A stretch of DNA of 64,000 bases from Patescibacteria group bacterium (lineage in GTDB: Bacteria > Patescibacteriota > Minisyncoccia > Phycocordibacterales > PALSA-1337), in the NCBI GenBank assembly GCA_028865615.1, contig JAGWJT010000001.1:1601-65600 (forward strand), in the 5' to 3' direction. Position numbers and translations under genes: made by a program. The notes under the pieces were generated by a model. The model saw nothing but the letters and a program-made list of their open reading frames with translations, searched no databases and was not told the origin of the DNA. Of this stretch, positions 28,242-52,400 are shown one piece after another (the first letter of the stretch is position 1; every line of letters begins with the position of its first letter).

Positions 28242-29786
28242 ATGAATATCCTGGGCATAGAGACATCGTGCGACGAGACGGCTTTGGCGCTCATCGAGAC
28301 GCGCAAGGACGGAAAATCGGGCATGGGGTTGCGCGTACTGGCTTCGCTGGTGCATTCGCAGGCGGAATTGCATAGCGCCTACGGCGGCGTCTACCCTACT
28401 CTGGCAAAGCGCGAGCATGGCAAAAATATAGTGCCGTTGCTTGGCAAGTTGTTGGAGGAACATGGGAACATTGTCCTGAAGAAACTTTCGGAGCCGTCGC
28501 GGGAGCCAAGTCCGCCTGGTACTGGCGACGGCGAGAACGTAACCCGTCCCGAGCCGGCCCATGTTCCGTGGCAGGCCGGCGAGGGACCGGGTGGTTCTGA
28601 AGGGCAATGTTCCCATGTTCCGACAACATTCAAGGATATCTTAGAGCGATTCAAGGACGAAATCGGTCCGCAAAATCCGGAACTGTTCGCATCGTTCTCG
28701 CACGCCGATTTCCTGCAAGGACCGGCACCGGCCATAGACGCCATAGCAGTGACGGAAGGTCCAGGCTTGGAACCGGCCTTGTGGGTCGGCATCAATTTTG
28801 CCAGGATGCTGGCGGCTTTGTGGCAAGTGCCGATCATCCCCGTCGATCACATGGAGGGACATATAGTCGGCTCGCTTCTGCCTTCGGACGCCGTAGCTCC
28901 GGCCGACGGCAACGGCGGTTGGCAGAGATTGCACGATGCGCCCATGCCGGCCATAGCTCTCCTCATAAGCGGCGGCCATACACAGTTGGTGAAAGTGTGC
29001 CGTCATGGGGCAGGCACAGCAGTCTCCTCACGTCCTGCGGAGCTCACTCGCGGAATCGCCGTCGCCTCGTCGCCTCTGCACCTTCGTGCAGAATTGGCTT
29101 CCTCGGCTCCTGGCGATTCTCGCTCGCTCGAGCAGGACCCTCGGACGTTCGGAAACTCTGTGCCTGCCCCATTTTCCTACACCATCCTCGGCGAGACCAA
29201 GGACGATGCCGTGGGAGAAGCTTTCGACAAGACCGCCAGACTTCTCGGCTTGCCGTATCCCGGCGGTCCTCACCTGTCGGAGCTAGCTCGCAAGGCTCGG
29301 GAAGAGAAGATTCCTGCACTAGTCAAACTGCCTAGACCGATGATCAACTCCGGCGATCTGGATCTTTCATTCTCCGGCTTGAAGACCGCGGTGCTCTACG
29401 TCGTGCGTGACGCCGACAAGAACCCTGACGGCTCACTGCCTGACGCGTTCAGGAAAAGCCTGGCCCAAGAATTCGAGACGGCCGTAGCCGACGTATTGGA
29501 CTTCAAATTGCGCGCGGCGATAGACAAGATCGGCGCCAAGTCCATCATATTGGGCGGCGGCGTATCGGCCAACTCTGTCCTGCGTGCCCGATTTGAGGCC
29601 GCCGCTGTAGAATACGGCATACCTGTATTCATGCCGTCAAGGCATATATCCGGAGACAATGCCCTCATGATAGCCGTGGCCGCGGCCATTCATGCCCATG
29701 AATATACCGGAACGCCCCCCACCGCAAGACGGTGGAGGGCGGACGGGACCAAGCGTCTAGGTGACGCTAGGGCTCATGATCAATGA
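28242..29786 (+). CDS. tsaD: tRNA N6-adenosine threonylcarbamoyltransferase TsaD (Kae1/YgjD family) carrying two large in-frame low-complexity insertions
   Basis: MNILGIETSCDET, PVDHMEGH, GGHTQL, GEAFDKTARLLGL and the C-terminal GGVSAN are all conserved; 514 aa vs ~340 typical; insertions at ~28480-28740 and 29005-29172. Confidence 0.85.
   Translation: MNILGIETSCDETALALIETRKDGKSGMGLRVLASLVHSQAELHSAYGGVYPTLAKREHGKNIVPLLGKLLEEHGNIVLKKLSEPSREPSPPGTGDGENVTRPEPAHVPWQAGEGPGGSEGQCSHVPTTFKDILERFKDEIGPQNPELFASFSHADFLQGPAPAIDAIAVTEGPGLEPALWVGINFARMLAALWQVPIIPVDHMEGHIVGSLLPSDAVAPADGNGGWQRLHDAPMPAIALLISGGHTQLVKVCRHGAGTAVSSRPAELTRGIAVASSPLHLRAELASSAPGDSRSLEQDPRTFGNSVPAPFSYTILGETKDDAVGEAFDKTARLLGLPYPGGPHLSELARKAREEKIPALVKLPRPMINSGDLDLSFSGLKTAVLYVVRDADKNPDGSLPDAFRKSLAQEFETAVADVLDFKLRAAIDKIGAKSIILGGGVSANSVLRARFEAAAVEYGIPVFMPSRHISGDNALMIAVAAAIHAHEYTGTPPTARRWRADGTKRLGDARAHDQ
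29005..29172. repeat. 168-bp in-frame insertion in tsaD bounded by 15-bp perfect inverted repeats (atggggcaggcacag / ctgtgcctgccccat); MITE-like
   Basis: Read directly; corresponds exactly to the 56 aa (CRHGAG...VPAP) absent from canonical TsaD between GGHTQL and the GEAFDK region. Confidence 0.5.
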
Positions 29787-30823
29787 TGGAACAAACCGAC
29801 TATGAAACTCCAGAAGCGTTGGATCAATGACCCAGCTTTTGCGACGGCTGCGGCCGCCACGTTCTGATTGTTGTCATTACCATTGGTTCCGACGGTAGGA
29901 CCTATCAGAGCGCTTGAAGTCGACAGGGCCGGGACATTCTGGCCGTTATTCACGCCGATAGCTCCGGTAGATGTACCGGCTGCCAAAGCGGCCTTATAAG
30001 CGTCGATGACGGAGAGCTCCTTGGCATCCAGAGTCAAAGGCTCGGCGCACGCGATCTCGTTGATCTTCTTGATCGTGGTTATATATGCTACGCCGGAAGC
30101 TTTCGTGGCGCCCCACGGGCCCATGATGTCAGAGAGATATTTCTTCTGGAAAGCCTCGACGGCCTGCTCGGTAGCCTGGTCGAATGTGCCGCTGACAGTC
30201 ACACTCAAGTGTTGGCTGTCCTTGAGGAAAGCCTGGAGCTTGGCGACTTGCGTCCTATCATTGGCCAGGCCCATCTTGAGCAATCCGACAGTGAGAAGCG
30301 GGCAGGAAGTGGTAGCGGTGGAAGTCGAGACATTGGTCGCCAGAGGTACGGCGCTGAAACCGCCGCCGATGTACGAGCCGCTGGAAGAAGTCGAACCCCC
30401 TCCGCCTCCGCCGGTAGGAGTCACCGGAGTGACGGGGGCCGGAGAAGAACCTCCGCTGCTGTTGCTACCCATTTGCGTCGGAACTCCGGTCGTGCCGCCG
30501 GCATTATTAGCGCCGCTCTGCGACGAAACACCGGATGTGCCGCTGAAATCATTGCTACCAGATTGTGTCGGCGTACCTGACGTTCCGCCTGAATTGTTAC
30601 TTGTGGAATCGGACGGGGTAACAGAAGTCGTATCGGCATTTGAGCCGCTGGAAACTGGCGTAGAAACCGAAGTATTGGAACCTGCGGTCGTAGGAACCGC
30701 CGCCGGAGCGCTTGAATTGTCGGTAACTGTCTGGGCCACGGCCGATGGGACAGATTCCGTAAAACTCACAAACCCTATTAATGCGAAAGCGACTATAGTC
30801 GCGTAAATTGTGTATTTTTTCAT
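29780..30823 (-). CDS. secreted Ser/Thr/Gly-rich protein with a putative peptidoglycan-binding (PG_binding_1-like) domain
   Basis: 347 aa; signal peptide; LKMGLANDRTQVAKLQAFLKD...VTVSGTFDQATEQAVEAFQKKYL resembles PG-binding helical repeats. Confidence 0.55.
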   Translation of the reverse strand: MKKYTIYATIVAFALIGFVSFTESVPSAVAQTVTDNSSAPAAVPTTAGSNTSVSTPVSSGSNADTTSVTPSDSTSNNSGGTSGTPTQSGSNDFSGTSGVSSQSGANNAGGTTGVPTQMGSNSSGGSSPAPVTPVTPTGGGGGGSTSSSGSYIGGGFSAVPLATNVSTSTATTSCPLLTVGLLKMGLANDRTQVAKLQAFLKDSQHLSVTVSGTFDQATEQAVEAFQKKYLSDIMGPWGATKASGVAYITTIKKINEIACAEPLTLDAKELSVIDAYKAALAAGTSTGAIGVNNGQNVPALSTSSALIGPTVGTNGNDNNQNVAAAAVAKAGSLIQRFWSFIVGLFHH

Positions 30824-30931
30824 AACGTTCTGACCCTATCATAAACGTATAATAATGTCAATACCTTTTAATAAAATCACCCCGCTCGCGAAAGCAGGGT
30901 GTTTTGATGCAGTCGGCGGCCGTTTGACCGC

Positions 30932-31948
30932 CTATTTTGTGCCGTTTGCCCCGACGGTTTGAGGCGGGACAACAACAGGTTCGGTCGAGTGGGCCACGTG
31001 AGTCATTGGCGTACTCGCCTCACTGGCCTTGTAGAAGGCGTATGGGTAAACCGGCGAGTCCTGGTAAACTCCCTCGTTCATGTTCGTGCCAATCCATGTC
31101 CACACAGGTTTGACCGTGAGATTGAGCGAGCGCTCAAGGTTGTAATACAAACCCAGGTGACGCTGCCCCTCGATGTTCACATTGGCAACGCTGCCGGCCA
31201 AGTCAACACTCGGCGGATCAACATAGACCACCGAACTCATCCGGTTAGTCATTCCGCCGTTCGGCATAATGATGGCAAAGAAGTTCGTCATCTCCATTAC
31301 ACCCTTGAAGTAATTCAAGTCGTTGGCCAGCGCCGACGAGTCAGTGCAATAGTAGCCGATGCGAATAATGCCAAATACCCGTGTGACCGGAGTGGTTATG
31401 GGTTCGCTGTTGTGATAATCCGCAATAAGCTTGCCCCCGCTCCAGACCTGACCGCGCAGCGTGGTGCCGAATGTCAACTGGCTGTTGTCAGCCGTATTCG
31501 TGGCAAGATTACCACCATAGCCAAGCGTATTGGCGTGATCGGTTGACCAACTGGCAAACCGGACAGAATTGACCTGGAACGGCGCCGAATCGCTGATGTC
31601 GAACGCCCAACCTATCTGGCTGCCGTTCTCACCGGCAAAAGTGCCCGTCGGATTGTTCGTGCCATCCCATGATGAGAACGTAGCTGGTCCGAAACAGATC
31701 TGGCACCCGCGCAGGACGTGAGGCGAATTCAAAGCGGCCGGGTTCGTGGCCACATCGGTGTTGATGAAGCCGACTGACCACCCCTTGTCCATGAATTCCA
31801 TGATGTTCTGCACAGCCACCGTGTAATTTGTGCTAATCTGTGCCGGCACGATGAAGAACTTGGTGCTAACCTGCGGTGCCGATTGAGCGACACTGTAGAT
31901 TGCCGAGATCATCATGACCATCATAGTAGTCAACTTGTGAATTTTCAT
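30932..31948 (-). CDS. hypothetical secreted protein
   Basis: 338 aa with N-terminal signal peptide; no recognisable domain. Confidence 0.55.
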   Translation of the reverse strand: MKIHKLTTMMVMMISAIYSVAQSAPQVSTKFFIVPAQISTNYTVAVQNIMEFMDKGWSVGFINTDVATNPAALNSPHVLRGCQICFGPATFSSWDGTNNPTGTFAGENGSQIGWAFDISDSAPFQVNSVRFASWSTDHANTLGYGGNLATNTADNSQLTFGTTLRGQVWSGGKLIADYHNSEPITTPVTRVFGIIRIGYYCTDSSALANDLNYFKGVMEMTNFFAIIMPNGGMTNRMSSVVYVDPPSVDLAGSVANVNIEGQRHLGLYYNLERSLNLTVKPVWTWIGTNMNEGVYQDSPVYPYAFYKASEASTPMTHVAHSTEPVVVPPQTVGANGTK

Positions 31949-32139
31949 TCTTTTTCTCCTCTCCTCGGATTTTCAATGTTCAGATAGGGTTGGCGCCAAA
32001 CAGTGGCGTCAAACTTGCCATTTTCCTTGGTTTTCCTTGGTTTCTACCCTCCTTTCCTTACATAGTCCGAGTTCTGTGTCCTTTCTAACAGAAAACTGCT
32101 ATTTAGTCAATACCCCCTAATCACTCCCGATTGCACACT

Positions 32140-32409
32140 CTAATTCCACCTCACCACCAGCTTGAGCACGGAAAAAGCGACCGTTATAACGGCAGTGATG
32201 ATGATCCCCGAAAAACCGACTACTCCCAATCCCCTGTCCATATCGAAAAGCGAATCATACAGGAAGCCGGCGGCTATCAATTCCGCGTAATAAGGGAACA
32301 TCCACAGGCACAGCAGGCCTAGCGGCACGAATACGAACCACCAGCCGAATATTATGGATACCGCCAGGACGATATCCAGTATGACACGGATAACCACGTC
32401 TTCTTTCAT
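32140..32409 (-). CDS. small 3-TM membrane protein; positional candidate for MreD
   Basis: 89 aa, hydrophobic; directly downstream of mreB-mreC on the same strand. Confidence 0.35.
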   Translation of the reverse strand: MKEDVVIRVILDIVLAVSIIFGWWFVFVPLGLLCLWMFPYYAELIAAGFLYDSLFDMDRGLGVVGFSGIIITAVITVAFSVLKLVVRWN

Positions 32410-32415
32410 GTTATT

Positions 32416-33231
32416 TTACGGCTTATTGATATCTTGTCCTATGCCAAGCAGGACCCATCGAATGTCATATATGTCGACCGGCGGAGCGAACACCACCGAG
32501 TCAAAAGGATCTGACGGGTCCGTATTCACTGATATTACAACACCAAATGCTTTGTCATGCAAGGTAGAATCGCTGACAATATCCCCGGGGGCTACGGTCG
32601 AATCATGTGGCACTTGGGCGGTATACTGACCCCCTCCTATGCCCTTGGCGGTCGCGGGGATGCCGCCGGGCCCTATAAGGACTTGATAGCTTTGTCCCGG
32701 CGACGACAGCAGGTCGACGAACGAACTCTCCCCGAACGACTCCGAGACTCGGCCTATGAGGATAGGACCCGGAGCATATACGGGAGTGCCGCTGGCCGCT
32801 CCTTCGTCCGTGCCTAGATCGACGATCAATCTGCCGGAACCGGCAAACGGCGGTCTGGCCAGAACGGCCGCCGCTTTGTACGCGCTTTTGGTGGTAGTGG
32901 CTCTGCCCAATAGAGCCAGGAGATCGGCATTCTGTTGTTCCAATATGGCCAGGCTCGAACTGGACGTCACGGTTTTCAAGCTTGCAATCTGCTGTTTCAG
33001 GTCTTCATTCTCCGCCAACAAGGCTTGCGGATCCTCTAGCGCGCCGTTCTCCAGAGCGAATCTCGTCCGCCAAAATGGGGCGGCCACGGATGAAGCAATA
33101 GATGGAAAAAGCCTTGGAATGCGCCATTCTATAGCGCCGGCCAACACGATGACGACCGCCAAAGCGACAGAGGCCAGCCTCTTTGCCCTGCTAGCTGGGG
33201 CATTATGACGACGAAGGTAGGTCATCTTCAC
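32416..33231 (-). CDS. mreC: rod shape-determining protein MreC
   Basis: 271 aa; N-terminal TM, coiled coil, beta-rich C-terminal domain (GDIVSDSTLHDKAFGVVISV) typical of MreC; follows mreB. Confidence 0.8.
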   Translation of the reverse strand: MKMTYLRRHNAPASRAKRLASVALAVVIVLAGAIEWRIPRLFPSIASSVAAPFWRTRFALENGALEDPQALLAENEDLKQQIASLKTVTSSSSLAILEQQNADLLALLGRATTTKSAYKAAAVLARPPFAGSGRLIVDLGTDEGAASGTPVYAPGPILIGRVSESFGESSFVDLLSSPGQSYQVLIGPGGIPATAKGIGGGQYTAQVPHDSTVAPGDIVSDSTLHDKAFGVVISVNTDPSDPFDSVVFAPPVDIYDIRWVLLGIGQDINKP

Positions 33232-34330
33232 TCTCTATGAGAACGGGCTTGAACCTATCTATGTCCTCGAGTATGACGCCCGCTCCCCTGGCGATAGCGG
33301 TCAAAGGATCATCCGCTATATATACGGGAAGCCTCAAGGTATCCGAGAGCAGGGCGTCCAGGCCTTTGATCAAAGCCCCTCCTCCGACCAGATAGGCGCC
33401 GCGCTTCATGACGTCGGACAATATCTCCGGCGGCGTCGTTTCCAGCACTTCTTTGGAAGCTTCGACCAGAGCTTCTATGGATTGGCTCATGGCTTCTCTG
33501 ATATCGCTATCGGTGATGACGACCTCGCGCGGCAGGCCGGTGATGAGATCTCGACCGCGTATGGTGGTTTCCATCGGCTCATCGGGTATGACGGATCCGA
33601 CGGCTATCTTGACCGCTTCGGCCGTAGTCTCGCCTATGAGTATCTTGAACTCGTTGCGTATATAGGAGATGATGTCGTTGTTCAGCTTGTCTCCGGCGAT
33701 CTTGAGATTCTTGGACCGCACTATGCCGCCGAGGGATATGACGGCTATATCGGTAGTGCCGCCGCCTATGTCTATGACCATGGACCCGACCGGATCATGC
33801 ACAGGAAGTCTGATGCCTATGGCACCGGCCATGGGTTGTTCTACTATATATACTTCGCGGGCGCCGGCATTCCTGGTGGCGTCTCGCACGGCTCTGACCT
33901 CTACGTTGGTGACACCGGAGGGCACACCGACCACTACGCGAGGGCCCAGGAAACGCTTCGGCAAGAATGCGGAAGCGCGGTTCATGAGGTATGAGAGCAT
34001 CTCTTCCGTCACCTCGAAATCTGATATTACGCCGTCCACCAGCGGCCTGACCGCCTTGATGTGAGCAGGCGTACGGCCGAGCATGTCTTTGGCCATGGCG
34101 CCGACCGCAACCACTTGGCCGGTCTTCTCGTTCACCGCTACAACTGACGGCTCGTTGACCACGATGCCCTTGCCGCGGACGTACACGAGAGTGTTGGCGG
34201 TGCCGAGGTCTATGCCGATGTCGTTGGACGCACCGGAGAACAATCTGTCCTTCCAGCCCTTGAAGCTGCTCCTGGCTCCGCTCAATCTGAAACTGTTCAT
34301 AACGCCGGATTTGCCGTTGTTTTTAGCCAT
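33203..34330 (-). CDS. mreB: rod shape-determining protein MreB (actin homologue)
   Basis: DIGIDLGTANTLVYVRGKGIVVNEPSVVAV, DIGGGTTDIAVISLGGIV and other actin/MreB motifs. Confidence 0.9.
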   Translation of the reverse strand: MAKNNGKSGVMNSFRLSGARSSFKGWKDRLFSGASNDIGIDLGTANTLVYVRGKGIVVNEPSVVAVNEKTGQVVAVGAMAKDMLGRTPAHIKAVRPLVDGVISDFEVTEEMLSYLMNRASAFLPKRFLGPRVVVGVPSGVTNVEVRAVRDATRNAGAREVYIVEQPMAGAIGIRLPVHDPVGSMVIDIGGGTTDIAVISLGGIVRSKNLKIAGDKLNNDIISYIRNEFKILIGETTAEAVKIAVGSVIPDEPMETTIRGRDLITGLPREVVITDSDIREAMSQSIEALVEASKEVLETTPPEILSDVMKRGAYLVGGGALIKGLDALLSDTLRLPVYIADDPLTAIARGAGVILEDIDRFKPVLIESEDDLPSSS

Positions 34331-34435
34331 GCCTGTACATTACCACAACGCAAGAATATGGGTAATTGACAAGTCTTGTAAAATTTTTCCCAATTAAGAT
34401 CCCGCAAGGCTGCCGCCGACTCTCCGGACCAATCC

Positions 34436-35692
34436 TTAAAAGGAACCAACGGGCACCATATCCACCTTCCCCGTTACGCGATCTTTGACTTCGACTGACC
34501 CGCCGCCGAGAGAACCGGCATCGCTCGACTTCAGAGTTTTCTCCGACACCACATAACGCTTTGGTATGCCTATAAGATCCGCATCGCCGAATTTTTCGCC
34601 GGCCGAACATTGACGGTCATCGTAGAGGACTTCGACGCCTTTGCTCGTCAGCTTCTCATATAGCTCATCGGCAACTTTCTTGACTTTGCCTTCTTCGTCG
34701 AACAGAGCTACTAGATGCACGGCAAAAGGCGCGACTGACTCCGGCCAGACGATGCCTTTGTCGTCAGCCGTGAGCTCCACTATAGTGCCCATGACTCGTC
34801 CCGGGCCGATGCCGTATGAGCCCATGAATACCGGCCTCGACTTTCCCGCTTCATCCTTGAAATTCAAACCCAGCGCCTCAGAAAACCTAGTACCGAGAGT
34901 GAAGATATTGCCGACTTCGGCGGCTTTAGCTTCTTTGAGATCTGTGCGCTTAAGCTTGAGATCTTCCAACACCTCATCATTTAAGACCTCTTTGTTTATG
35001 GCACGACCGTCCTCCGCTATATATATGACATCCTCGCCGGCATCGCAGACCGTCTGGAATTCATGCGAGAATTTGGAAAAAGAGCCGCCGGAGGCATTCG
35101 TCACATATGTCTGGTCTCCTATGCCGAGCCGGCCGAAGATCTTCACATATGCCTGCTTGGCCTTTTCGTAAAACTCCGCGTGGGCTTTCTCGTCCACGTT
35201 GAATGAGTACAGATCCTTCATCAAGAACTCTCTGGTGCGCATGATGCCGGACTTTGCTCGTGTCTCGTTGCGGAATTTCGTCTGGAATTGGTACACGGAA
35301 AGCGGCAGGTCGCGATAGGAGCTGATCTGCCCGCGCATAAGGTCTGTCAATGGCTCTTCGTGGGTAAAGCCGAGACCGAGCTCGTCGCCGCTTTTCATCT
35401 TGGTCTTGAACCATACGTCTACTTCTTTGTCTGACCAGCGCTTGGTTGCATCCCACTTGCTCTTGGACTGCAAAGCAGCCAGATGGACTTCCTGGCCGCC
35501 TATGGCGTCCATCTCCTCGCGGATGACGCCGACGATCTTGTTCAAAGTGCGCAAACCGAGCGGCAGATACGAGTACACGCCCGCCATCTCTTTGTGGATG
35601 TAACCGGCCCGGATGAGGAGCTGGGCATTCTTGGACACTTCGTCCTTGGGCGCCTCGCGGCGGGTCTTGGTGAACAGTTTGGACTGCTTCAT
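34436..35692 (-). CDS. proS: prolyl-tRNA synthetase (short class II form)
   Basis: 418 aa; class II motifs and ProRS-like N-terminus (MKQSKLFTKTRREAP...YSYLPLGLRTLNKI). Confidence 0.9.
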   Translation of the reverse strand: MKQSKLFTKTRREAPKDEVSKNAQLLIRAGYIHKEMAGVYSYLPLGLRTLNKIVGVIREEMDAIGGQEVHLAALQSKSKWDATKRWSDKEVDVWFKTKMKSGDELGLGFTHEEPLTDLMRGQISSYRDLPLSVYQFQTKFRNETRAKSGIMRTREFLMKDLYSFNVDEKAHAEFYEKAKQAYVKIFGRLGIGDQTYVTNASGGSFSKFSHEFQTVCDAGEDVIYIAEDGRAINKEVLNDEVLEDLKLKRTDLKEAKAAEVGNIFTLGTRFSEALGLNFKDEAGKSRPVFMGSYGIGPGRVMGTIVELTADDKGIVWPESVAPFAVHLVALFDEEGKVKKVADELYEKLTSKGVEVLYDDRQCSAGEKFGDADLIGIPKRYVVSEKTLKSSDAGSLGGGSVEVKDRVTGKVDMVPVGSF

Positions 35693-37003: not shown

Positions 37004-37007
37004 GAAA

Positions 37008-37080
37008 ATTTCTAATTAACCTAATTGATCTAATTTCTAAACTTTAGGTTAATTAGATCAATTAGAAATTAGGTCAATTA
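37008..37080. repeat. dense array of TAATT-containing 9-bp units in both orientations (taattaacc, taattgatc, taatttc, taattgacc), forming a compound palindrome
   Basis: Read directly; occupies the whole rseP-promoter / frr-terminator intergenic gap. Confidence 0.4.
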
Positions 37081-37631: not shown

Positions 37632-37649
37632 TCGTCTACGCTCGGCGGT

Positions 37650-37745
37650 AATTTCATTTCACCTCAAATCCGAATGTCAGAGCGATTCGTACGGATGATT
37701 ACCGAACTTGTTCGGTTTGAGTTGAAATGAAATTACCGCTTCGCT
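37650..37745. promoter_or_regulatory. 23-bp inverted repeat (cggtaatttcatttcacctcaaa / tttgagttgaaatgaaattaccg) with a ~50-nt structured loop, upstream of frr
   Basis: One mismatch in 23; the loop contains the sub-hairpin ccgaac-ttgt-tcgg. Confidence 0.35.
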
Positions 37746-39544: not shown

Positions 39545-39567
39545 AATTGGGGACTATAGCATGAAGA

Positions 39568-39688
39568 GAAACTAGCGGACAAGGCCTGACTGACACTTCG
39601 CAGGCGATTCCTAGCAAGGAATCGCCGAGATGTAGCGCGGCCTCTGCAGAGGCCGACGCGTGTCAGGAAGGCCTTGTCCGCTAGTTTC
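39568..39688. repeat. palindromic intergenic element, copy E (diverged core; 20-bp perfect outer arms gaaactagcggacaaggcct / aggccttgtccgctagtttc), overlapping the murA stop
   Basis: Core ttcgcaggcgattcctagcaaggaatcgccgagatgtagcgcggcctctgcagaggccgacgcgtg; the right arm includes the murA TAG stop. Confidence 0.6.
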
Positions 39689-41015
39689 TAACTACATCGG
39701 CTCCTAAACTTTGTAATCTTTCCTCCAACCGTTCATAGCCGCGATCGATCAGTCCGATGTTCGTCACGGTCGTCTCTCCCTCGGCGCACAAAGCGGCCAG
39801 GACGACGGCGAAGCCTGCACGGATGTCGAGAGCTTTCATTTCCCTGCCCGCCGGCAAAGCTTTCAATCGCGAGGGCCCGCTTATAGTTATCTCTTGCGAA
39901 CTAACGGTATCTATATCCGCACCCAAAGACTTTAGGTCATCGACATATTTGAACCGCCCTTCGTATATAGTCTCCGTAAGCTTGCTCCTGCCGGAGACTT
40001 GGGTCATATACACCGCTATCATCGGCTGCAAATCGGTTGCGAATCCGGGATACTCCTTGGTCGTGACGTCAAAGGTCTTGAATGAGGAATCGGGCATTGT
40101 ATTGCCACTGACGACTATCGAAGAGTCTGTCGTCTTTATCGGCACACCCGATAACTTCAACAGATCGATGAGCGCACCTAGATGTTCCGGCCTGCAATCA
40201 TCGATCTTCAATTCATCGGCGCACAGTGCGCCTAGTACGAGATAACTGCCGGCCTCTATGCGGTCGGGGATGGCAACATACGGATTCTTAGCGGCCGACT
40301 CTGACGAAAGCAACCTGCCGCCTGTGCCTTCTATCTCAATAGTTGACGTGCCTACGCCTTTTATCTTCGCTCCGCATGCGTTCAGCCATTCGACTACATT
40401 GACTATCTCTGGTTCGCAAGCGCAATTCTCAAGCACAGTCTTGCCTTCCGCCAATACGGCGGCCATCATCAGCGTCTCTGTGGCGCCGACCGATACCTTC
40501 TTGAATATGATGTTTGCGCCCTTTAGGCTTTGGACTTTGGACTTTGGACTTACACTTATGTCATACACCCCATCTTCCTTGGTCATGGCACCCATGGCTT
40601 CGTAACCGCTAATAAATAAATCTATAGGCCTGGCCCCTATGACGCATCCACCCGGTGCCGGAAATGTAGCCTTGCCGAAACGGCCGAGAAGCGGGCCCGT
40701 CAGCACGACCGATGCGCGCATCTTCCCGGCCAGCTCGCCGTCTATATCGGTCGATCGCAAACCGCGGGTATCTATCTCCATTGCGTGGTCTATCTCGCCG
40801 CTATCCTTGGTCCAAGAGACGTCCGCGCCAAGCTTACGCAGTATCTCGGCTTGTATGTGGATATCCTCGGTATGAGGCATATTCTTGAGACGGACCGGCC
40901 CGTCAAATAGAACTGCGGCGGCCATAGCCTTCAAGGCGGCATTCTTGGCACCGTTCACCCGAACGGTTCCTTTGAGCGTCTTCTTGCCTCCAAGCCCTTG
41001 TATAACGAATTTTTC
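39681..41015 (-). CDS. murA: UDP-N-acetylglucosamine 1-carboxyvinyltransferase MurA
   Basis: Start assigned to MEKFVIQG (41015); EPSP-synthase fold motifs; the ORF extension to 41069 would overlap the upstream gene. Confidence 0.85.
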   Translation of the reverse strand, partial: EKFVIQGLGGKKTLKGTVRVNGAKNAALKAMAAAVLFDGPVRLKNMPHTEDIHIQAEILRKLGADVSWTKDSGEIDHAMEIDTRGLRSTDIDGELAGKMRASVVLTGPLLGRFGKATFPAPGGCVIGARPIDLFISGYEAMGAMTKEDGVYDISVSPKSKVQSLKGANIIFKKVSVGATETLMMAAVLAEGKTVLENCACEPEIVNVVEWLNACGAKIKGVGTSTIEIEGTGGRLLSSESAAKNPYVAIPDRIEAGSYLVLGALCADELKIDDCRPEHLGALIDLLKLSGVPIKTTDSSIVVSGNTMPDSSFKTFDVTTKEYPGFATDLQPMIAVYMTQVSGRSKLTETIYEGRFKYVDDLKSLGADIDTVSSQEITISGPSRLKALPAGREMKALDIRAGFAVVLAALCAEGETTVTNIGLIDRGYERLEERLQSLGADVVRN

Positions 41016-43659: not shown

Positions 43660-43724
43660 TATAACAAATCCAATAAATTGTCAATATATTAAACCTTTCT
43701 GAAAAACGCTAGAATCGAAGCCAC

Positions 43725-44267
43725 ATGAAGGAGAAACGCGAAATAGTCCAACGAGACGCGGCTGTATTGCGAGAAAAGGCCAAGGCGGTGCCCGTGGAAG
43801 AGATAACTTCGCCGCGCATACGCAAAGTCATAGCCGACATGAAGGCCGCCATGCATGCCCAGAAGGATGGCATAGCCATAGCCGCGCCGCAGATAGGCGA
43901 ATCGCTACGCATATTCGTGGTAGCGGGAGACTTGCTGGAAAAGGCCGACCCATCCTACAAGGGCGGCCCCGAAGACCTAGTGTTCATCAACCCCGTCATA
44001 GAGAAGCTGTCGCGCGACAAGAAAGAGATGGAAGAGGGATGCCTATCCGTGCGCTGGCTGTACGGCAAAGTCAATCGTTCCACCCGCGCCTCCATAAAGG
44101 CCTATGACGAGAACGGCAAAAAGATATCGCGCGGCGCCTCAGGCCTCCTGGCTCAAATATTCCAGCACGAGACCGACCACCTCGAAGGCGTCATATTCAC
44201 CGATAAAGCCAGAGAGCTGTGGGAGATGTCGGCGGAGGAGATAGCGGAGTTGCAAAGGAAAGGGTAG
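43725..44267 (+). CDS. def: peptide deformylase
   Basis: 180 aa; GIAIAAPQIG, EGCLS and QHETDHLEG motifs. Confidence 0.9.
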   Translation: MKEKREIVQRDAAVLREKAKAVPVEEITSPRIRKVIADMKAAMHAQKDGIAIAAPQIGESLRIFVVAGDLLEKADPSYKGGPEDLVFINPVIEKLSRDKKEMEEGCLSVRWLYGKVNRSTRASIKAYDENGKKISRGASGLLAQIFQHETDHLEGVIFTDKARELWEMSAEEIAELQRKG

Positions 44268-44310
44268 ATTCAGGATGCAAGATTCAGGATTCAAGAGAAA
44301 AATTCTTGAA

Positions 44311-44334
44311 TCATGAATCATGAATCATGAATCA
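44311..44334 (+). repeat. tandem heptanucleotide repeat (tcatgaa x ~3.5) spanning the fmt start codon
   Basis: tcatgaatcatgaatcatgaatcaacg creates three ATGs in three frames; only the one at 44320 is productive. Direct repeats (attcaggat x2) and a small hairpin lie just upstream. Confidence 0.4.
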
Positions 44335-45207
44335 ACGATAAAGTTCGCTTTCTTCGGCAGTTCGCGATTTTCCGTATTTGTGCTGGACGAACTGGAGAAA
44401 GCCGGGTTGGCGCCGACCATGATAGTCACGACGCCGGACAAGCCCGCCGGCAGAAGATTGAAACTGACGCCGACGCCCGTCAAGGAGTGGGCGGCCGAGC
44501 GTGGCACAAAGACGTTCGCGCCGGCCAAGCTCGACGCCACTTTCGCCGGCGCCCTGAAAAATAACCCGTGCGACGTATTTGTGGTAGCTTCTTACGGGAA
44601 GATGATCCCCGGCTCCATCATCGATATACCGCCGAGGAAGACGCTCAACATCCACCCTTCCCTTTTGCCCAAATATCGCGGCGCCTCCCCGTTGCAATCG
44701 GCGATGTTAGACGACGAAAAGAATACGGGTATCACTATCATGCGCATCAACGAAAAGATGGATGAAGGACCTATAGTGGCGCAAAGGCTAGTTACTATAA
44801 GCCAATGGCCGATTTATGAAGAGTTCGAGGAGGCTATGGCCCGCGAAGGCGGCAGGCTATTGGCTGAGGTCTTGCCCGGATGGGTAAGCGGCCGGTTGGA
44901 AGAAAAGGAGCAGGATCATTCAAGCGCTACCTACACGAAGAAGATCGCCAAAGAAAACGGCTTCTTGGACCTTTCAGCCGACCCGTACCTCAATTTCCGC
45001 AAGATCCAGGCATACCATGAATGGCCCGCGGCATATTTCTTTGCTGTCAGGAAGAACCATGACGGCAGCGACCACGCGAGGATACGCGTCAAAGTGACGG
45101 CCGCCTCATTCAAGGACGGAAAACTGTCTATAGACAGAGTGGTACCGGAGGGCAGTCGGGAAATGCCGTTCGCTGATTTCAGCAAAGGTTACGGTCCGGT
45201 CAGGTGA
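44320..45207 (+). CDS. fmt: methionyl-tRNA formyltransferase
   Basis: 295 aa; formyltransferase N-domain (NIHPSLLPKYRGASP) and C-terminal domain; forms a def-fmt operon. Confidence 0.9.
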   Translation: MNHESTIKFAFFGSSRFSVFVLDELEKAGLAPTMIVTTPDKPAGRRLKLTPTPVKEWAAERGTKTFAPAKLDATFAGALKNNPCDVFVVASYGKMIPGSIIDIPPRKTLNIHPSLLPKYRGASPLQSAMLDDEKNTGITIMRINEKMDEGPIVAQRLVTISQWPIYEEFEEAMAREGGRLLAEVLPGWVSGRLEEKEQDHSSATYTKKIAKENGFLDLSADPYLNFRKIQAYHEWPAAYFFAVRKNHDGSDHARIRVKVTAASFKDGKLSIDRVVPEGSREMPFADFSKGYGPVR

Positions 45208-45788: not shown

Positions 45789-46009
45789 TTGTGGATGAAT
45801 TATACCAATAAATGTGATACGAATCTACGAGTGACGTCGTTCTACGGATAATATTACGGCGCCGACTGCGACGATGGTGCATATGGCGGTTATCAACGGA
45901 TATCGGATCCCGGCGTTCGTTCCCGTGTTTTTGATTTTGGGCATATTATGTGATAGATTTCCCCATGTCAGGTCATTGAAAGACAATATTCCATTCAAGG
46001 AATAAATAT

Positions 46010-46081
46010 TCCGGAGTAGCTCAGCGGTAGAGCGGTCGCCTGTTAAGCGATTGGTCGCTGGTTCGAATCCAGCCTCCGGAG
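46010..46081 (+). tRNA. tRNA-Asn (anticodon GTT)
   Basis: Manual fold: acceptor tccggag/ctccgga, D-arm gctc-agcggta-gagc, anticodon arm gtcgc-ctGTTaa-gcgat, T-arm gctgg-ttcgaat-ccagc; T-run follows. Confidence 0.85.
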
Positions 46082-46105
46082 CAATTTTTTCAGCCATATT
46101 TTTCA

Positions 46106-46453
46106 ATGGTTAATTTTGATACCCAACCTGATCGTTCGAAAATCATAAACCGGAGCGAGCCACATGACATTGTAATGTGCTACAATTCACACATGAACAA
46201 GCGACCTTTATATATGCGCGTCATAATCGTCATCGTCTTGGTCATTGTGGCTGGATTCTCTATCCAGCAATTCTTCATGCTACGGAAAGCGCATAGCACG
46301 TTCGAAAATTATTACAATTTCAGAGGTTGCGTCCAATTGATCGCCACCACTACAGATTCCGGCACATGCAGGACATCTTCCGGTCAGACCATAAAGATTG
46401 TCGAGATCAACAACAAGTGGTACCTAGAGGGAGACGGTCCGGGGATTTGGTAG
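46106..46453 (+). CDS. hypothetical small membrane-anchored protein (probable start at the internal Met MNKRPLYMRVIIVIVLVIVAGF)
   Basis: One TM helix; no recognisable domain. Confidence 0.4.
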   Translation: MVNFDTQPDRSKIINRSEPHDIVMCYNSHMNKRPLYMRVIIVIVLVIVAGFSIQQFFMLRKAHSTFENYYNFRGCVQLIATTTDSGTCRTSSGQTIKIVEINNKWYLEGDGPGIW

Positions 46454-46488
46454 ATGGTCGCTTACTGTTCATCTGCTATAATCTATTC

Positions 46489-46794
46489 ATGCCAAAAAAG
46501 ATATCAGGCGGCGTCGTGCATGCACTTCCGGCGGATTTGCGGAAGGCCCTTATGGCTTCCCCGAAGGCGCTAGCGGCATGGGAAGACATAACGCCGTTGG
46601 CGCGCAACGAGTGGATATGTTGGACCATATCGGTCAAGCAGGCTGAGACGCGCGAAGAGCACGTGGAACGAGTGGTATCGGAGCTCATAGAAGGCATGCG
46701 CAGACCATGTTGCTGGCCCGGTTGCATGCATCGGACGGACAAGCCATTGAGCCGATCGCAGAGATTTGTGCTTCGCGCACGAGCTAAGAAGTAA
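46489..46794 (+). CDS. YdeI/OmpD-associated (bacteriocin-protection) family-like small protein
   Basis: 101 aa; LPADLRKALMASPKALAAWEDITPLARNEWICWTISVKQAETREEHVERVV resembles the YdeI-family core; a TATAAT box (46476-46481) lies 8 nt upstream of the ATG. Confidence 0.5.
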   Translation: MPKKISGGVVHALPADLRKALMASPKALAAWEDITPLARNEWICWTISVKQAETREEHVERVVSELIEGMRRPCCWPGCMHRTDKPLSRSQRFVLRARAKK

Positions 46795-46818
46795 TAGGCG
46801 AAATAAATAAACAGCTAT

Positions 46819-47667
46819 CTATTTATCGCTATTGGCGAGCAACAACGCGCCGATGAGGCCGGCTCTGTCGCCTAGTTCGGCTACTTTCAGCTTCGGTGCC
46901 GTCGGAAAAGATTTTTCGGTCATTGCCTTGAATTTGGGGCGCAATACTTCCACGAAATGTGGAGAATCTACTATGGCACCGCCGCCAATGACCAGCACAT
47001 CCGGCGACCAGGCTGTTACGACGTTAGAAAGACCGGCAGCCATCACATCCGCGATATGATTCAAATCACCGTTATCTGTGATCTCCGACAGTCTTTTTCC
47101 GTATTTTTTCATAATAGCTTTGCCCGACGCCAGATCCTCGAAAGTCGATCCGGTCTTTGCGTCCAATATGGCTTTGCCGGGCTCCGAACCATAATGTTCA
47201 GCGTCCAATTCGCCATTTACCACCCTAGCGCCGCCTATGCCTGTACCGACTGTTATATAGCCTACGATTTTATAGCCTACTCCCGCGCCCTTTACGGCTT
47301 CACCCACGCATGCGGCGGCGGCATCGTTGTTTAAAATCACTCCCGTCGAGGGAAGCGCATCGGCAAAAGCATTGCCTATATCCGCACCATCCCAGCCTTT
47401 CAGATTTTTTGAGCTTAGCACCTTGCCGTCTTCATGAGTGCCAGCCAATGCTACAGATATTAAATTCACTTCCCTACCAGCGGAAACTTCTTTCGCCATT
47501 CTGTCCAAGAGATCTCGTGCCGCCCCAAAATCCTGCGGCGTATTTTCGACAGTTACAGGTCCTATAGTCTCCCCGTCCGCCGAATAAGCCGCCCGCATAT
47601 GCGTACCGCCGATATCAAAAACGACTGTTCCCCTATTCTTGCCGGTATTTTCCACGCCGTCATTCAT
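46819..47667 (-). CDS. ROK/BadF-type sugar kinase (glucokinase-like)
   Basis: Start at MNDGVENTGKNRGTVVFDIGGTHMR; DIGGT and the NDAAAACVGE...TVGTGIGG motifs of ROK/ASKHA kinases. Confidence 0.65.
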   Translation of the reverse strand: MNDGVENTGKNRGTVVFDIGGTHMRAAYSADGETIGPVTVENTPQDFGAARDLLDRMAKEVSAGREVNLISVALAGTHEDGKVLSSKNLKGWDGADIGNAFADALPSTGVILNNDAAAACVGEAVKGAGVGYKIVGYITVGTGIGGARVVNGELDAEHYGSEPGKAILDAKTGSTFEDLASGKAIMKKYGKRLSEITDNGDLNHIADVMAAGLSNVVTAWSPDVLVIGGGAIVDSPHFVEVLRPKFKAMTEKSFPTAPKLKVAELGDRAGLIGALLLANSDK

Positions 47668-48629
47668 GGGACTATGAGCTTCTTGAATTCCTCCACCAGG
47701 GCGGTCGAGGCCGGATCCTGGCCGGAAGCCTTGGCCGTGAAGTATGCAGTCCAATGAGATAGATATATAGAGTTAGCAAGCTTTTCGTAGTGGGATTTGC
47801 CATCAAGCGCTACTCCCATAACTTCACCTCCCCTGTCTTTGACCAGTCTCTGCATAACTTCCATGCGTTTTTTTATTTGCGGGCCATCTTCTTCGTCGGT
47901 CATATACATGATTCTAAATCTGTCAGCCCCGCCGGTGAACGACATCATCTCGTTGTGGTTGAGCTCGGAGAAAACGTTCCAGAAGGCCGCCGTCTTGCCT
48001 GTCTCATTCATGGCTATCTTCATGAATTTGGCCGCGAAAGTATTCCTCGATGAGGCATATATGAGCGGTATACTGCCCTTGAAGAAATCAGCCGCTTCCC
48101 TGCCTATCTTTTCCGCTAGTGTCATATCCGCCGATTTGGCTATGTTTTCAAATACTTGCGACTTCTCATGGTCGCCAAAGAAAACAAGCAACGCCATAGC
48201 CATCAAACCCGTGGCCATCCTCGGCTCAATGCCCCAATCGGGCAATACAATGTGCGGCAGGCCATTATCTTTGGCAAAGGTCTCGAGCTTGCCGCCTTTT
48301 GATATGACAGCCAGGGACAAGCCATTCTCCAATGTTGATCTGGCGAAATCTAGCGTCTCCACTGTGTTGCCGGAATAGGAAACAGCTATGTATAACCGCT
48401 CCGAGTCGCCATCTGGCAATATCGGCAAGCCATAATCTTCGTGTATTTTCAGATCTAGCGCGGGATACGCAGACTTCAGGAAATCGGCCGCCAGATGGGA
48501 GCCTCCCATGCCGCCGACCACAAATCGGCTGAATCTAGCGCCTGCGGCAAGCTCTCCGGCATTCTCGACGGTCGGCCGCCAAGCAAACTGGCCGGGCATC
48601 TTCTTTATGTCTTCTGCATATTTGTCCAT
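47664..48629 (-). CDS. bifunctional phosphoglucose/phosphomannose isomerase (SIS domain)
   Basis: 321 aa; GGMGGSHLAADF and SYSGNTVET SIS motifs. Confidence 0.65.
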   Translation of the reverse strand: MDKYAEDIKKMPGQFAWRPTVENAGELAAGARFSRFVVGGMGGSHLAADFLKSAYPALDLKIHEDYGLPILPDGDSERLYIAVSYSGNTVETLDFARSTLENGLSLAVISKGGKLETFAKDNGLPHIVLPDWGIEPRMATGLMAMALLVFFGDHEKSQVFENIAKSADMTLAEKIGREAADFFKGSIPLIYASSRNTFAAKFMKIAMNETGKTAAFWNVFSELNHNEMMSFTGGADRFRIMYMTDEEDGPQIKKRMEVMQRLVKDRGGEVMGVALDGKSHYEKLANSIYLSHWTAYFTAKASGQDPASTALVEEFKKLIVP

Positions 48630-48703
48630 AGATGTATGCCTCTCATTATAGACGATTTACTGGCGCCGCTCCAGGTGGTAGAGTGATTGCGCAGACAAGC
48701 AAG

Positions 48704-48793
48704 CGCCCGGGTGGCGAAATTGGTTATACGCGCAAGACTTAAAATCTTGTTTCCGTTCATTCGGAAGTGCGAGTTCGACTCTCGCCCCGGGCA
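48704..48793 (+). tRNA. tRNA-Leu (anticodon TAA), long variable arm
   Basis: Acceptor gcccggg/cccgggc, anticodon arm caaga-ctTAAaa-tcttg, ~19-nt variable arm, T-arm gcgag-ttcgact-ctcgc. Confidence 0.85.
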
Positions 48794-48816
48794 CAAATCA
48801 GCTCAAACGGCAAAAC

Positions 48817-49428
48817 TCAAAATGCAAAACTTTTGAGGAAGCTGCGGCGATGCATCTCGCTTGGACCAAGCTTCTTGATAGCTCCGTAGTGAGCCTTCGT
48901 ACCATACCCCTTATGCACCTCAAAACCATAGCCCGGAAACCGGCGCGACAGCCGCTTCATCTTGCGGTCGCGCAGGACTTTGGCGCATATGGAGGCCAGA
49001 GCGATGATGGCGTGCTTGGCATCGCCGTCTATGATAGTCCGCTGGTTGACATACCTCGACGGCGCATATAGCGAACCGTCGAGCATGACTTTGCAAGAAT
49101 AGCCGGGCGCGGCAAAACCTTTGGCCTCAAGCTTTTTCAAGCACCTATTGAGAGCCGTCCGTGTGGCACGAGTTATACCATGCGCATCGATAATTGCGGC
49201 ACTAGAGAATGACACCGCGTAATACACTTTGCCATTTGCCTTTTGAGTTTTGATTTTTCCAAACCATTCCTCGCGTTGAGCTTCAGACAGTTGTTTCGAA
49301 TCCTTGACGCCGCGAAACTCATTCAAGGCCTTTTCCGACTTCACGGCAAAAGCGCCCACCGCTATCGGCCCCGCCAACGGCCCCCGACCCGCTTCGTCGA
49401 TGCCTATGAAGAACCCGGTTTTTTGCAT
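48817..49428 (-). CDS. rnhB: ribonuclease HII
   Basis: 203 aa; GIDEAGRGPLAGP catalytic motif. Confidence 0.9.
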   Translation of the reverse strand: MQKTGFFIGIDEAGRGPLAGPIAVGAFAVKSEKALNEFRGVKDSKQLSEAQREEWFGKIKTQKANGKVYYAVSFSSAAIIDAHGITRATRTALNRCLKKLEAKGFAAPGYSCKVMLDGSLYAPSRYVNQRTIIDGDAKHAIIALASICAKVLRDRKMKRLSRRFPGYGFEVHKGYGTKAHYGAIKKLGPSEMHRRSFLKSFAF

Positions 49429-49478
49429 GCGTCAATTATACGCCGAACTGTCCGCTTTGCTATACTGGCACCATCGCC

Positions 49479-52400
49479 ATGGCTTCCCTATTTACCCATC
49501 TCCATACCCACTCCCACTACTCCCTGCTCAATGCCCTGCCCAGGATAGACGAGCTGGTGACAGAGGCCAAGAAGCTCGGCATGGATGCGCTGGCCTTGAC
49601 CGACAACGGCAATATGTACGGCACCATAGAGTTCTACAAGGCCTGCAAGAAAGCCGGCATCAAGCCCATCGTAGGCGTCGATTTCTATGTGGCCGCCAGG
49701 TCACGCAAGGACATGCAAGCAGGCATAGACAATCGCCGGTCACGCTTGGTATTGCTGGCCATGAATGAAACCGGTTACAGAAATCTCATACAACTCGTCA
49801 CCATATCGCACCTGGAAGGTTTCTATTACAAGCCGCGCATAGACCGAGAGCTCATCGAAAAATACAATGAGGGCCTCGTCTGCATCATGCCTTCGTTCAG
49901 CGGCGAGATCGCCCAGTCGCTCAAAGGCAGGAATCAGGACAAGGCAAAGGAAGTCGCCAATTTTTATAAAAGAGTGTTTCAGAAGGAGCTTCCGAACCTT
50001 CCGACTAGGCTCTTCATAGAAATAACCCGCCATCCCGAGATAGACGGGCACGAGCAGAACATGAAAACACTGGCCGACTTTGCTCGGGCGCAGGATATTC
50101 CTGTCATGGCCGCCCATGATGTCTACTACCTACACCCGGATGACCGCCAAGCCCGCGAGACTCTCGTGAGGGTCAATTCGCATATGGACGCATCCGACCG
50201 CATATCAGACGGCGACGAAGACGATTTCTCCTTCATATCGGGTGAGCGAGCCGAAGAACTATTCAGGGACATGCCCGAGGCGCTCGACAATACCGCCGCC
50301 ATAGCCGGAGCTTGCAACCTGGACCTCAAGCTAGGTACTTGGTTCTTCCCCGACTTCAAGGTGAAGAGCGGCCTATCAGCCGACGATGAACTTCACAGGC
50401 TGGTATTCGAAGGATTCGACAAACGCGGCGTAGAAAAAACCTCGGAGGCTGTATCGCGCGCCGAATACGAGCTCAAAGTCATACGCGACAAAGGCTACGC
50501 TCCGTACTTCCTCGTAGTGGCAGACCTGCTCCGATACGCCAAAGAGAACGGCATACTTTCCAACATCAGGGGTTCCGTGTCCGGTTCCATAGTGACTTAC
50601 TTGTCCGGCATCACTCAGATCAACCCGCTCACATATGAGATACCCTTCGAGCGCTTCCTGAACCCGGACCGCCCCTCGGCGCCGGATATAGACATGGACT
50701 ATGCCGACGATCGCAGAGACGAGATCATAGATTATGTCCGCCGAAAATATGGCCAGGACAAAGTGGCCCAGATAGGCACATTTGGCACCATGATGGCTCG
50801 TGGCTCCGTCCGTGATGTCACCCGCGCACTTGGCTTCGCCGTGGAGACGGGAGACCGCATAGCCAAGATGATACCAATGGGCTCGCAAGGCTTCCCCATG
50901 ACCATAGATAGGGCTCTGGCCGAGACGCCGGAACTCAAGCAGGCATACGATTCCGAGCCTGACACAAAGCGCATCATAGACATGGCCAAGAAGATAGAGG
51001 GCTGCGCCCGCCACATAGGCGTCCATGCCGCCGGCGTAGTCATAGCCCCGACCAAGCTCACCGACTATACCCCGCTTCAATATGATCCAAAAGGCGAAGG
51101 AAAAATCATTACTCAATACGATATGTATTCCATAGACGAGAATGGCGCTGGTCTTTTGAAATTCGACTTCCTGGGCCTGAAGAACCTGACCATCATAGCC
51201 GATGCTGTCAGCCGCATAGCAAAGATAGACGGTGTCTCGATAGACCTGGACAAATTGCCCATAGACGATAGAGAGACTTTTGAGATGCTGGCCAGAGGCG
51301 AGACGGCCGATTTGTTCCAACTGAACGGCGACGGCATGACCAGATTCTTGAAAGACCTGAAACCGTCATCGATACACGATATCAACGCCATGGTGGCCCT
51401 ATACCGCCCAGGTCCTATGCAATTCATCCCTGACTATATAGCCCGTAAGCACGACCATTCGCTCATCAAATATCTCGACCCCGCCATGGAAAAGATACTT
51501 GCCAAGACTTATGGCATCCTGGTCTATCAGGACGACTTGCTCATCATGGCGCACGACTTGGCCGGCTATTCATGGATAGAAGTGGACAAATTCCGCAAAG
51601 CCGTAGGCAAGAAGATACCCGCGGAGATGGCGGAGCAGAAAGAGAAATTCATCAAAGGCTGCATGAAGCACAGCAAATGGTCGGAGAAAAAAGCCAAGGA
51701 AGTTTGGAAGTGGATAGAGCCTTTCGCGGCATACGGCTTCAACAAGGCCCACTCCGTGTCGTACGGCCGCGTGGCCTACATAACCGCATACCTGAAAGCT
51801 CATTTTCCGGAAATATATCTGTCGGCGGTGCTGACTTCGGAACAAGGCGAAACGGACAAAGTGGCGGAGACCATAGCTGAATGCAAACGTATGGATATAC
51901 CCGTCCTGCCGCCGGACGTGAACGAGTCGTTCAGCAAATTCACGGTGGTCAAAAATCAATCGGGGTCGGAGACTCATGCTCCGCAGAACCAGGTGTCTCC
52001 TCGCCCGTCATCCAACCGAACAGAGACGGGCTCGGAGCACCCTACGTTCTCGCCGCCGCCAGTGGTCCAGACAACTCGTTCCTCCGCAGCGGCTCCGAAA
52101 GTTTCTGCTGAACATGAGTCTCCGACCCCTCCTTCCGCTCCGACCTATTCCGCTCCGGCTCATTCAAGCACATATCACACCATTCGCTTTGGGCTGGTCA
52201 CCATCAAGAATTTCGGCCAAGGCATATCGACGGCCATCATAGACGAGCGCAAGAAAGGCGGCCGATTCAAGTCCTTGGCCGACTTCCTGGAGCGCGTCCA
52301 TGACCGCAACCTCAACAAAAAATCCCTAGAGTCGCTCATCAAGGCCGGGGCCATGGACTGCTTCGGCCACGACCGCGGCGTCATGCTGGCCAATATCGAT

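Follow-up and report, generated by a model that had tools for sequence, protein, structure and literature searches.

How do low-complexity segments come to lie, in frame, inside essential genes of bacteria with very small genomes? This question is raised by a stretch of 64,000 nt from a Patescibacteria group bacterium (metagenome-assembled genome, assembly GCA_028865615.1, contig JAGWJT010000001.1, positions 1,601 to 65,600 of the forward strand), which is called the window in the following. Two genes of the window, tsaD and dnaE, contain three segments bounded by inverted repeats, which a sequence-only reading had interpreted as transposable elements of the miniature inverted-repeat kind (MITEs). 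According to the analysis described here, these segments are probably selfish, hairpin-forming coding palindromes belonging to at least two families (A/B and C), which survive in frame as disordered linkers. Proteins of the Patescibacteria, also called candidate phyla radiation (CPR), are known for unexplained insertions, and some of these, in two essential genes, can now be traced to hairpin elements that would arrive at tolerant turns of the protein, change orientation there, lengthen, and decay.

Coding palindromes in tsaD and dnaE

The TsaD protein of the window has 514 amino acids (aa), compared with about 390-440 aa in Parcubacteria orthologues, and its DnaE protein has 1140 aa, compared with a base length of about 1060 aa in relatives. 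Inserts of this kind break alignments and homology-based annotation; the window TsaD, NCBI protein KGI49_00140 from a contig of 67.6 kb, is an example, having been deposited as 'hypothetical protein'. The genes and the segments within them are the following:

28242-29786, + strand: tsaD, encoding the N6-threonylcarbamoyl-adenosine transferase subunit (514 aa; assigned by translation, homologues, Pfam PF00814, and orthologue alignment)
28450-28628, - strand: family A/B coding palindrome in tsaD (insert 1; arms 28450-28483 and 28595-28628)
29005-29172, + strand: family C coding palindrome in tsaD (insert 2; 168 bp, 56 codons; arms 29005-29019 and 29158-29172)
49479-52901, + strand: dnaE, encoding DNA polymerase III alpha (1140 aa; assigned by translation and orthologue alignments)
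51962-52129, + strand: family A/B coding palindrome in dnaE (168 bp, 56 codons; arms 51962-51988 and 52103-52129)
52130-52181, + strand: Pro/Ser/Ala-rich tail PSAPTYSAPAHSSTYHT in dnaE (unstructured; between the element and IRFGL, outside the hairpin)

All three in-gene inverted repeats are present where the sequence-only reading had placed them, and they exceed chance by codon shuffles and fold z-scores. In dnaE, the 17-nt repeat described earlier (51965-51981 and 52110-52126) exists, but it contains one mismatch and is the core of a longer repeat, the outer arms of which comprise 27 nt each and are 93% complementary. This element is located at the tip of the hairpin turn between FTVVK and IRFGL, and the tail following it is possibly a decayed older insert. 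The repeat around insert 2 of tsaD, which is positioned between two beta strands, is indeed perfect over 15 nt. An insertion had also been recognized correctly at about 28480-28740 of tsaD, but the 'weaker terminal symmetry' ascribed to it was wrong, as this insert 1 has arms of 34 nt (85% complementary), which are longer than those of the other two repeats. Insert 1 is in reverse-complement orientation with respect to the dnaE copy, and its core folds as two inner hairpins. Its left arm overlaps the codons for LLEEHGNIV at the end of a predicted native helix, and its right arm is an inverted copy of the left arm and is disordered.

The stem scores of the three repeats are 15, 19, and 21. The best ungapped stem scores 19 in tsaD and 21 in dnaE, compared with maxima of 14 and 13 in 150 codon shuffles per gene, and 19 stems scoring at least 12 were found in the whole window versus 0-2 in shuffled windows. 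RNA folding yielded -90.6 kcal/mol (z -9.35) for the dnaE insert, -115.3 kcal/mol (z -8.90) for tsaD insert 1, and -95.0 kcal/mol (z -7.91) for tsaD insert 2, and the stability of all three segments was unmatched by any of 200 shuffles. Because the inverted repeats are far above the shuffles, a chance origin is excluded. For each segment, the predicted fold is a long closing stem that encloses further hairpins. The window was also scanned for stable folds with a 160-nt sliding window scored against GC content, which under-detects hairpins of at least 170 nt. Inserts were compared with core regions by stem scans; boundaries drawn from alignment occupancy cut off arms located in partly occupied columns.

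As the sequence-only reading had stated, both genes are open throughout the segments, without stop codons. The same holds for relatives: among 80 metagenomic DnaE loci, which were fetched by tblastn regardless of open reading frame (ORF) calls, the frame is open across the site in 77, and the other three end at a contig edge (77/77 testable loci). The codon phase of the core varies among copies, and one A/B DNA stretch encodes 'AAPKVS' when it lies in dnaE but 'KKLSEP' when it lies in tsaD. Since the core is read in varied codon phases, it is the nucleotide sequence that is conserved and not the peptide. The inserts are very probably translated as disordered loops, the peptides of which would have no function of their own. 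This agrees with an AlphaFold2 model of TsaD, in which the predicted local distance difference test (pLDDT) score of the host fold is around 90, whereas the inserts (residues 81-127 and 257-307) score below 50 and are devoid of secondary structure; two helices flank one insert, and two strands flank the other. At the DnaE site, Pol III alpha of Thermus (Taq; 2HPI) has a turn of 2 residues in the alignment. The earlier proposal of a placement as surface linkers is supported by these results, and the model suggests that the inserts occupy tolerant surface positions.

Repeat families and their turnover among relatives

When tsaD insert 1 is reverse-complemented, its core aligns with that of the dnaE insert at 72% over 117 nt (alignment z 22), with common blocks that include TACGTTCTCGCCGYCGCCAGT and CGGCTCCGAAAGTTTCT; the outer arms of the two copies are unrelated to each other. 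Family A/B is also found at the DnaE site of other Parcubacteria in both orientations, giving peptides of type A ('...SGSAEPAP.S.SPSL.PKV...') or, in the flipped form, of type B ('...RLSEGAKATENEVP.QQ.RTPF...'). The two window copies carry derived expansions that the copies of other species do not have. As these expansions are common to the window copies only, the dnaE and tsaD copies are mutual closest relatives, which points to a spread of the element within this genome. Family C has the conserved core CAGCAG...CTCTG, and relatives of tsaD insert 2 were found among the inserts at tsaD site 1 of two other species (L001 and L002) and in the DnaE insert of L106. Both TsaD sites, as well as DnaE of other species, can thus carry this family. 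The prediction that further copies should exist is borne out by A/B in both window genes and by A/B and C in other Parcubacteria.

A further family, D, is located at the DnaE site of other species and resembles repetitive extragenic palindromic (REP) elements, with conserved arms GTCATTCCCGCGAAGGCGGGAATCC and inverse; like the halves of a REP doublet, each arm contains a small GC hairpin. Copies of family D are also present in intergenic DNA and at another site of DnaE. The dnaE gene of L104 contains two copies, at 150-292 in the region of the PHP domain and at 2326-2469 at the FTV/IRFGL turn, so that the FTV/IRFGL hot spot is not the sole tolerated site.

Copies of A/B and C each have their own paired outer arms around the conserved core. 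The general build is a core of small hairpins that is conserved in nucleotides and a long closing stem, the outermost 12-30 bp of which are copy-specific. The stems covary, and a TGCT/AGCA loop is conserved. Searches with single seeds in nhmmer recovered only close copies, and hidden Markov models of the A, B, and C peptides found only the already known DnaE and TsaD copies among 5880 ORFs from the window and the fetched loci. The A/B core pattern had no match in viral contigs.

Alignments of orthologues revealed the presence/absence polymorphism that had been suggested as a check for both the DnaE and the TsaD sites. Among 120 DnaE orthologues, the segment FTV...IRFGL ranges from 25 to 112 aa, with about 5-10 aa between FTV and IRFGL when the site is empty and up to about 90 aa elsewhere. 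In a neighbor-joining tree of the flanking protein sequence, relatives that are 2-10% apart in protein are either empty at this site or carry A, B, C, or D. Empty sites are contrasted with B in P0234, P0233, and P0216 versus P0240 and in P0226 and P0229 versus P0202; A is contrasted with B in P0166 versus P0174 and in P0142 versus P0160, and C with A in P0127 versus P0131. In TsaD, insert 2 is missing from most orthologues, and the linker that forms site 1 comprises 0-50 aa. Together with the family copies at other loci, this presence and absence among orthologues argues for dispersed repeat insertions rather than ancient loops, as had been proposed. A fold z-score of -4.5 or lower was obtained for 18 of 41 distinct DnaE-site inserts, and the phenomenon is present in numerous assemblies that are independent of each other (NCBI, JGI, and ENA).

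Two species pairs from this tree differ, at the DNA level, by an inversion of the element in place. Between L164 and L165, 111 nt are inverted at 91% identity, and between L166 and L167, 95 nt are inverted at 85% identity, with directly aligned flanks in both cases. The arms of L164 and L165 have compensating differences, TTGAA/TTCAA versus TCTGG/CCAGA and ATG/CAT versus AAAG/CTTT, including a compensating indel, which lies beside a 30-nt indel. The arms of L166 and L167 are only about 54% alike, although complementarity within each pair is perfect or nearly so and the core is 85% alike.

Native codons can also give rise to hairpins. The conserved codons for FTVVK in the dnaE genes of L136 and L151 are followed by their own inverted copy, TTCACTGTTGT-GAAA-ACAACAGTGAA, encoding FTVVK|TTVN. 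Likewise, in tsaD of L011, L012, L022, and L038, one arm is located in alignment columns that are 91-100% occupied and the other in insert columns. Perfect stems of at least 12 bp with a short loop are found in 8 of 42 tsaD genes of Patescibacteria versus 0 of 41 from other bacteria (Fisher p = 0.005) and 1 of 830 codon shuffles. The stem-bearing genes are those of L011, L012, L017, L020, L022, L023, L024, and L038, with stems of 12-15 bp and loops of 3-4 nt, and one arm often lies over conserved residues. At the DnaE hot spot, L123, L108, and L092 have hairpins without a recognizable family core, which may be unoccupied or newly made. In L123 and L108 this is a simple perfect stem of 17-18 bp, and in L092 a closing stem of about 30 bp surrounds inner hairpins (fold z -11.5).

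Origin and maintenance of the elements

To survive in an essential gene, an element would need a length of 3n, the absence of stop codons, and a tolerant surface turn. Once a palindrome is present, intra-strand template switching at replication would keep both arms identical, and it could also extend the arms into flanking host sequence, flip the core in place, and make new hairpins out of native codons. Template switching has been described to homogenize the arms of inverted repeats and to invert spacers (PMC8604942) and to create and maintain hairpins (PMC8794818). As arm homogenization, extension, and spacer inversion are published signatures of this process, we infer that it acts on the elements described here. 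The cores may arrive at new loci by insertion into existing hairpin loops, by ectopic template switching, or by enzyme-driven movement. The conservation of cores irrespective of orientation and the TGCT/AGCA loops, which are also found in an intergenic repeat family of the window (see below), hint that single-stranded hairpins may be the target of a hitherto undescribed enzyme that recognizes such structures, or of an equally undescribed host function. As a tentative extension of this model, palindromic modules throughout the lineage may originate from native codons, move from gene to gene, change orientation in place, and be continually re-templated, so that hairpin elements would be the main source of the many low-complexity insertions in CPR proteins; this is possible rather than probable.

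Several other explanations have to be weighed. Template-switch quasipalindrome mutagenesis (PMC8604942, PMC8794818, PMC7202029) homogenizes and extends arms and inverts spacers, and its signatures match the differences between L164 and L165 and between L166 and L167 as well as the de novo hairpins. It could be argued that each hairpin is an inverted duplication made on the spot, with no movement between loci, in line with the de novo inverted copies of native codons, the enrichment of short perfect hairpins in Patescibacteria coding sequence, and the outer arms that are unique to each copy. This mutagenesis, however, is a mutational process and not an element, and it does not explain identical cores in different genes. 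Different genes and different species share the same cores (A/B is found in both dnaE and tsaD of the window, C at both TsaD sites as well as in DnaE), and additional copies of family D are located in intergenic DNA as well as at the second DnaE site. Because the cores are common to unrelated loci, local duplication is insufficient, and a purely local origin is regarded as improbable. Classical MITEs, which are non-autonomous derivatives of insertion sequences moved in trans by a transposase via conserved terminal inverted repeats and leave target-site duplications, are an unlikely explanation as well. MITEs such as Correia, ERIC, and Nezha are small, non-coding-sized, palindromic, and dispersed like the families described here, and some MITEs make in-frame fusions (PMC10969869). 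In addition, the arms of family D (GTCATTCCCGCGAAGGCGGGAATCC) are conserved, and the conserved inner stems of A/B and C could be true termini. The MITE nature assumed in the sequence-only reading is nevertheless not supported by the outermost repeats, which differ in every A/B and C copy, the conserved part being the inner core; conserved arms were found only in family D, in other species. Furthermore, no flanking direct repeats could be read from the sequence at the three in-gene or the five intergenic copies.

The very stable structures of -90 to -115 kcal/mol, the covarying stems with the conserved TGCT/AGCA loop, and the cores, which are kept more than the arms in whatever orientation or codon phase, would also fit a structured element that benefits the host, for example in the processing of mRNA, in pauses of translation between domains, or in the control of replication, with the peptide as a by-product. 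In close relatives, however, the site is without the element altogether or is occupied by unrelated families, many inserts have lost their structure through decay, and covariation is explained equally well by templated arm correction. The inserts also match no Rfam family: at the gathering threshold, only tRNAs and a DUF3800-II RNA were detected in the window, and E-value scans of the inserts returned only sub-threshold matches to generic hairpin models. Accordingly, a host-beneficial element has little probability. Even less can be said for intervening sequences that are removed before or during translation, be it as a hairpin-bounded intron, by RNase III excision and religation, or by ribosomal bypass. 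A long stem joins the insert ends, as in excised intervening sequences of ribosomal RNA, and introns are frequent in Patescibacteria (PMC13011429). Yet the frame is kept without stops in all 77 testable loci and in all three window inserts, which would be needless in case of excision, and no intron or ribozyme family matched, so that removal is very improbable. The idea that the segments are ancient lineage-specific loops with chance repeats or assembly artefacts can practically be dismissed: all Parcubacteria orthologues have variable loops at the two sites, but the inverted repeats far exceed shuffles, close relatives differ by presence, absence, and family replacement, and the same phenomenon recurs in independent assemblies from three databases. 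Inteins were rejected as a candidate, as the inserts comprise about 56 aa of low complexity (versus at least about 130 aa), have no intein motifs, and are disordered in the model. Readings as an intron, a CRISPR, or a retron-like element were ruled out by size, motifs, and the lack of model matches.

Selfish coding palindromes thus remain the preferred reading, and the following points weigh against it. The translation of the inserts is a prediction from frame conservation. For this genome, A/B and C copies are known from the window only, and breadth beyond DnaE and TsaD is not seen for family C, since a search of its peptide profile against 5.8 billion proteins returned nothing at E<=0.01, the profile being too short. 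No transposase was detected among the 30 window proteins scanned against Pfam, and no enzyme or donor for the mobility of the cores was identified. Between vertically related copies, the cores outlast the arms (85-91% versus about 54%), which could alternatively reflect a nucleic-acid function at the level of the host or repeated re-insertion. Finally, the inserts of L003, L018, L087, and L106 at these sites are without any hairpin, so that a palindromic origin is not demonstrable for every insert; these may be decayed elements or have a different origin.

The closest known system, according to the best reading of the evidence, are the Rickettsia palindromic elements (RPEs; Ogata et al. 2000 Science; Ogata et al. 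2002 Genome Res; in-frame elements reviewed in PMC10969869) and not a classical MITE. RPEs are likewise hairpin-forming repeat families of about 100-170 bp that are inserted in frame into unrelated housekeeping genes and also into intergenic DNA of a reduced-genome host, are predicted to be compatible with the fold of the host protein, and have no known transposase. The features by which RPEs are functionally defined were found for the window elements, which form a repeat family, are palindromic, in frame, and free of stops, and are surface-located according to prediction and alignment. In contrast to RPEs, however, the elements described here occur in Patescibacteria and probably have unrelated sequences, and homology to RPE-1 to RPE-10 is unlikely because phylum and base composition differ. 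They additionally have copy-specific paired arms and occur in both orientations at one site with in-place inversion, and one protein turn is a hot spot across many species in which several families replace each other. A resemblance also exists to REP elements and REPINs, which are mobilized by RAYT transposases and are short, abundant elements acting as single-stranded hairpins; it is seen in family D at the DnaE site, with its conserved inverted arms and a small GC hairpin in each. REPs are extragenic by definition, whereas the three window copies are inside coding sequence with predicted translation; A/B and C are conserved internally and not at the arms, and the Pfam scan of the 30 window proteins revealed no Y1 transposase or RAYT gene. 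Long, near-perfect inverted repeats inside functional protein-coding genes are also known as coding palindromes from mitochondria of Nematomorpha (PMC6649704), but there both arms encode conserved regions, in contrast to the non-conserved disordered loops and dispersed families found here.

If the phenomenon is general, it would provide a specific way in which mutation generates new linkers in proteins of bacteria with very small genomes and, after Rickettsia, a second independent case of selfish DNA inside housekeeping genes of reduced-genome bacteria. It would also offer natural material for studying template switching, with arms that co-vary perfectly and cores that invert.

Intergenic repeats and other features of the window

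The genes neighboring tsaD and dnaE in the window are ordinary housekeeping genes, namely murG, gltX, cysS, dnaB, recR, rmuC, tatD, an ABC transporter gene, a gene for an IleRS-like synthetase, mreBC, murA, priA, def, fmt, and thrS. Between these genes, a separate family of intergenic repeats of 123-125 nt is present in five copies:

13930-14052: intergenic repeat
16583-16707: intergenic repeat
17095-17217: intergenic repeat
20265-20389: intergenic repeat
39567-39689: intergenic repeat, diverged

The copies are located 0-14 nt from the stop codons of cysS, recR, rmuC, the ABC transporter gene, and murA, and the arm of the copy at 39567-39689 takes in the last two codons and the stop codon of murA. 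They fold into a three-way junction consisting of a long stem and two hairpins of 10 bp, the loops of which are AGCA and UGCA. Four of the cores are 96-99% identical, and the fifth is the diverged one. The outer 10-12 bp of the arms are copy-specific yet complementary, and 23 of 50 pairs in the family have compensatory changes. The family has no Rfam match, and its core pattern did not match contigs from one genome per species. The sequence-only reading had suggested a kinship of tsaD insert 2 with this family, which could not be substantiated, as the shared words are not significant (pairwise alignment versus shuffles, z<3).

The rmuC gene (17217-18275) directly adjoins one of the intergenic copies. 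In E. coli, the RmuC family is reported to limit inversions at short inverted repeats.

Smaller insertions in tatD and the ABC transporter gene had also been included among the putative elements, and this part of the claim is not supported. The extra segment 'DNEELGDNGNANASGFTSRGEDFD' in tatD (19395-20246) and the extra segment 'DEDAPGLPAGRSGQRSKP' in the ABC transporter gene (20393-22240) have no inverted repeat and no hairpin, their folding is ordinary, and there is no evidence that they belong to an element family.

Other palindromes of the window include a long hairpin at 37645-37739 in the gap between holB and the upstream gene, with 24-nt arms that are 96% complementary, a 47-nt loop, and a fold z-score of -7.0. 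An AT-rich cluster of nested palindromes lies near this hairpin at 37007-37080, and both are unrelated to the other families. An inverted repeat between def and fmt (44264-44336) has 33-nt arms of GATTCAGGAT-like units.

The cysS ORF as listed begins 121 codons 5' of the likely start MKGHTTEIK..., and the additional stretch (12153-12515) is His/Arg-rich and of low complexity, with the Pfam domain extending from residue 142 onward. It is probably part of an over-extended ORF and not a true extension. The DUF3800-II RNA (Rfam RF02961) is encoded on the + strand at 56476-56545, with 54.4 bits versus a gathering score of 43.2, and overlaps the 3' end of the minus-strand ORF 56528-57106 by 18 nt.

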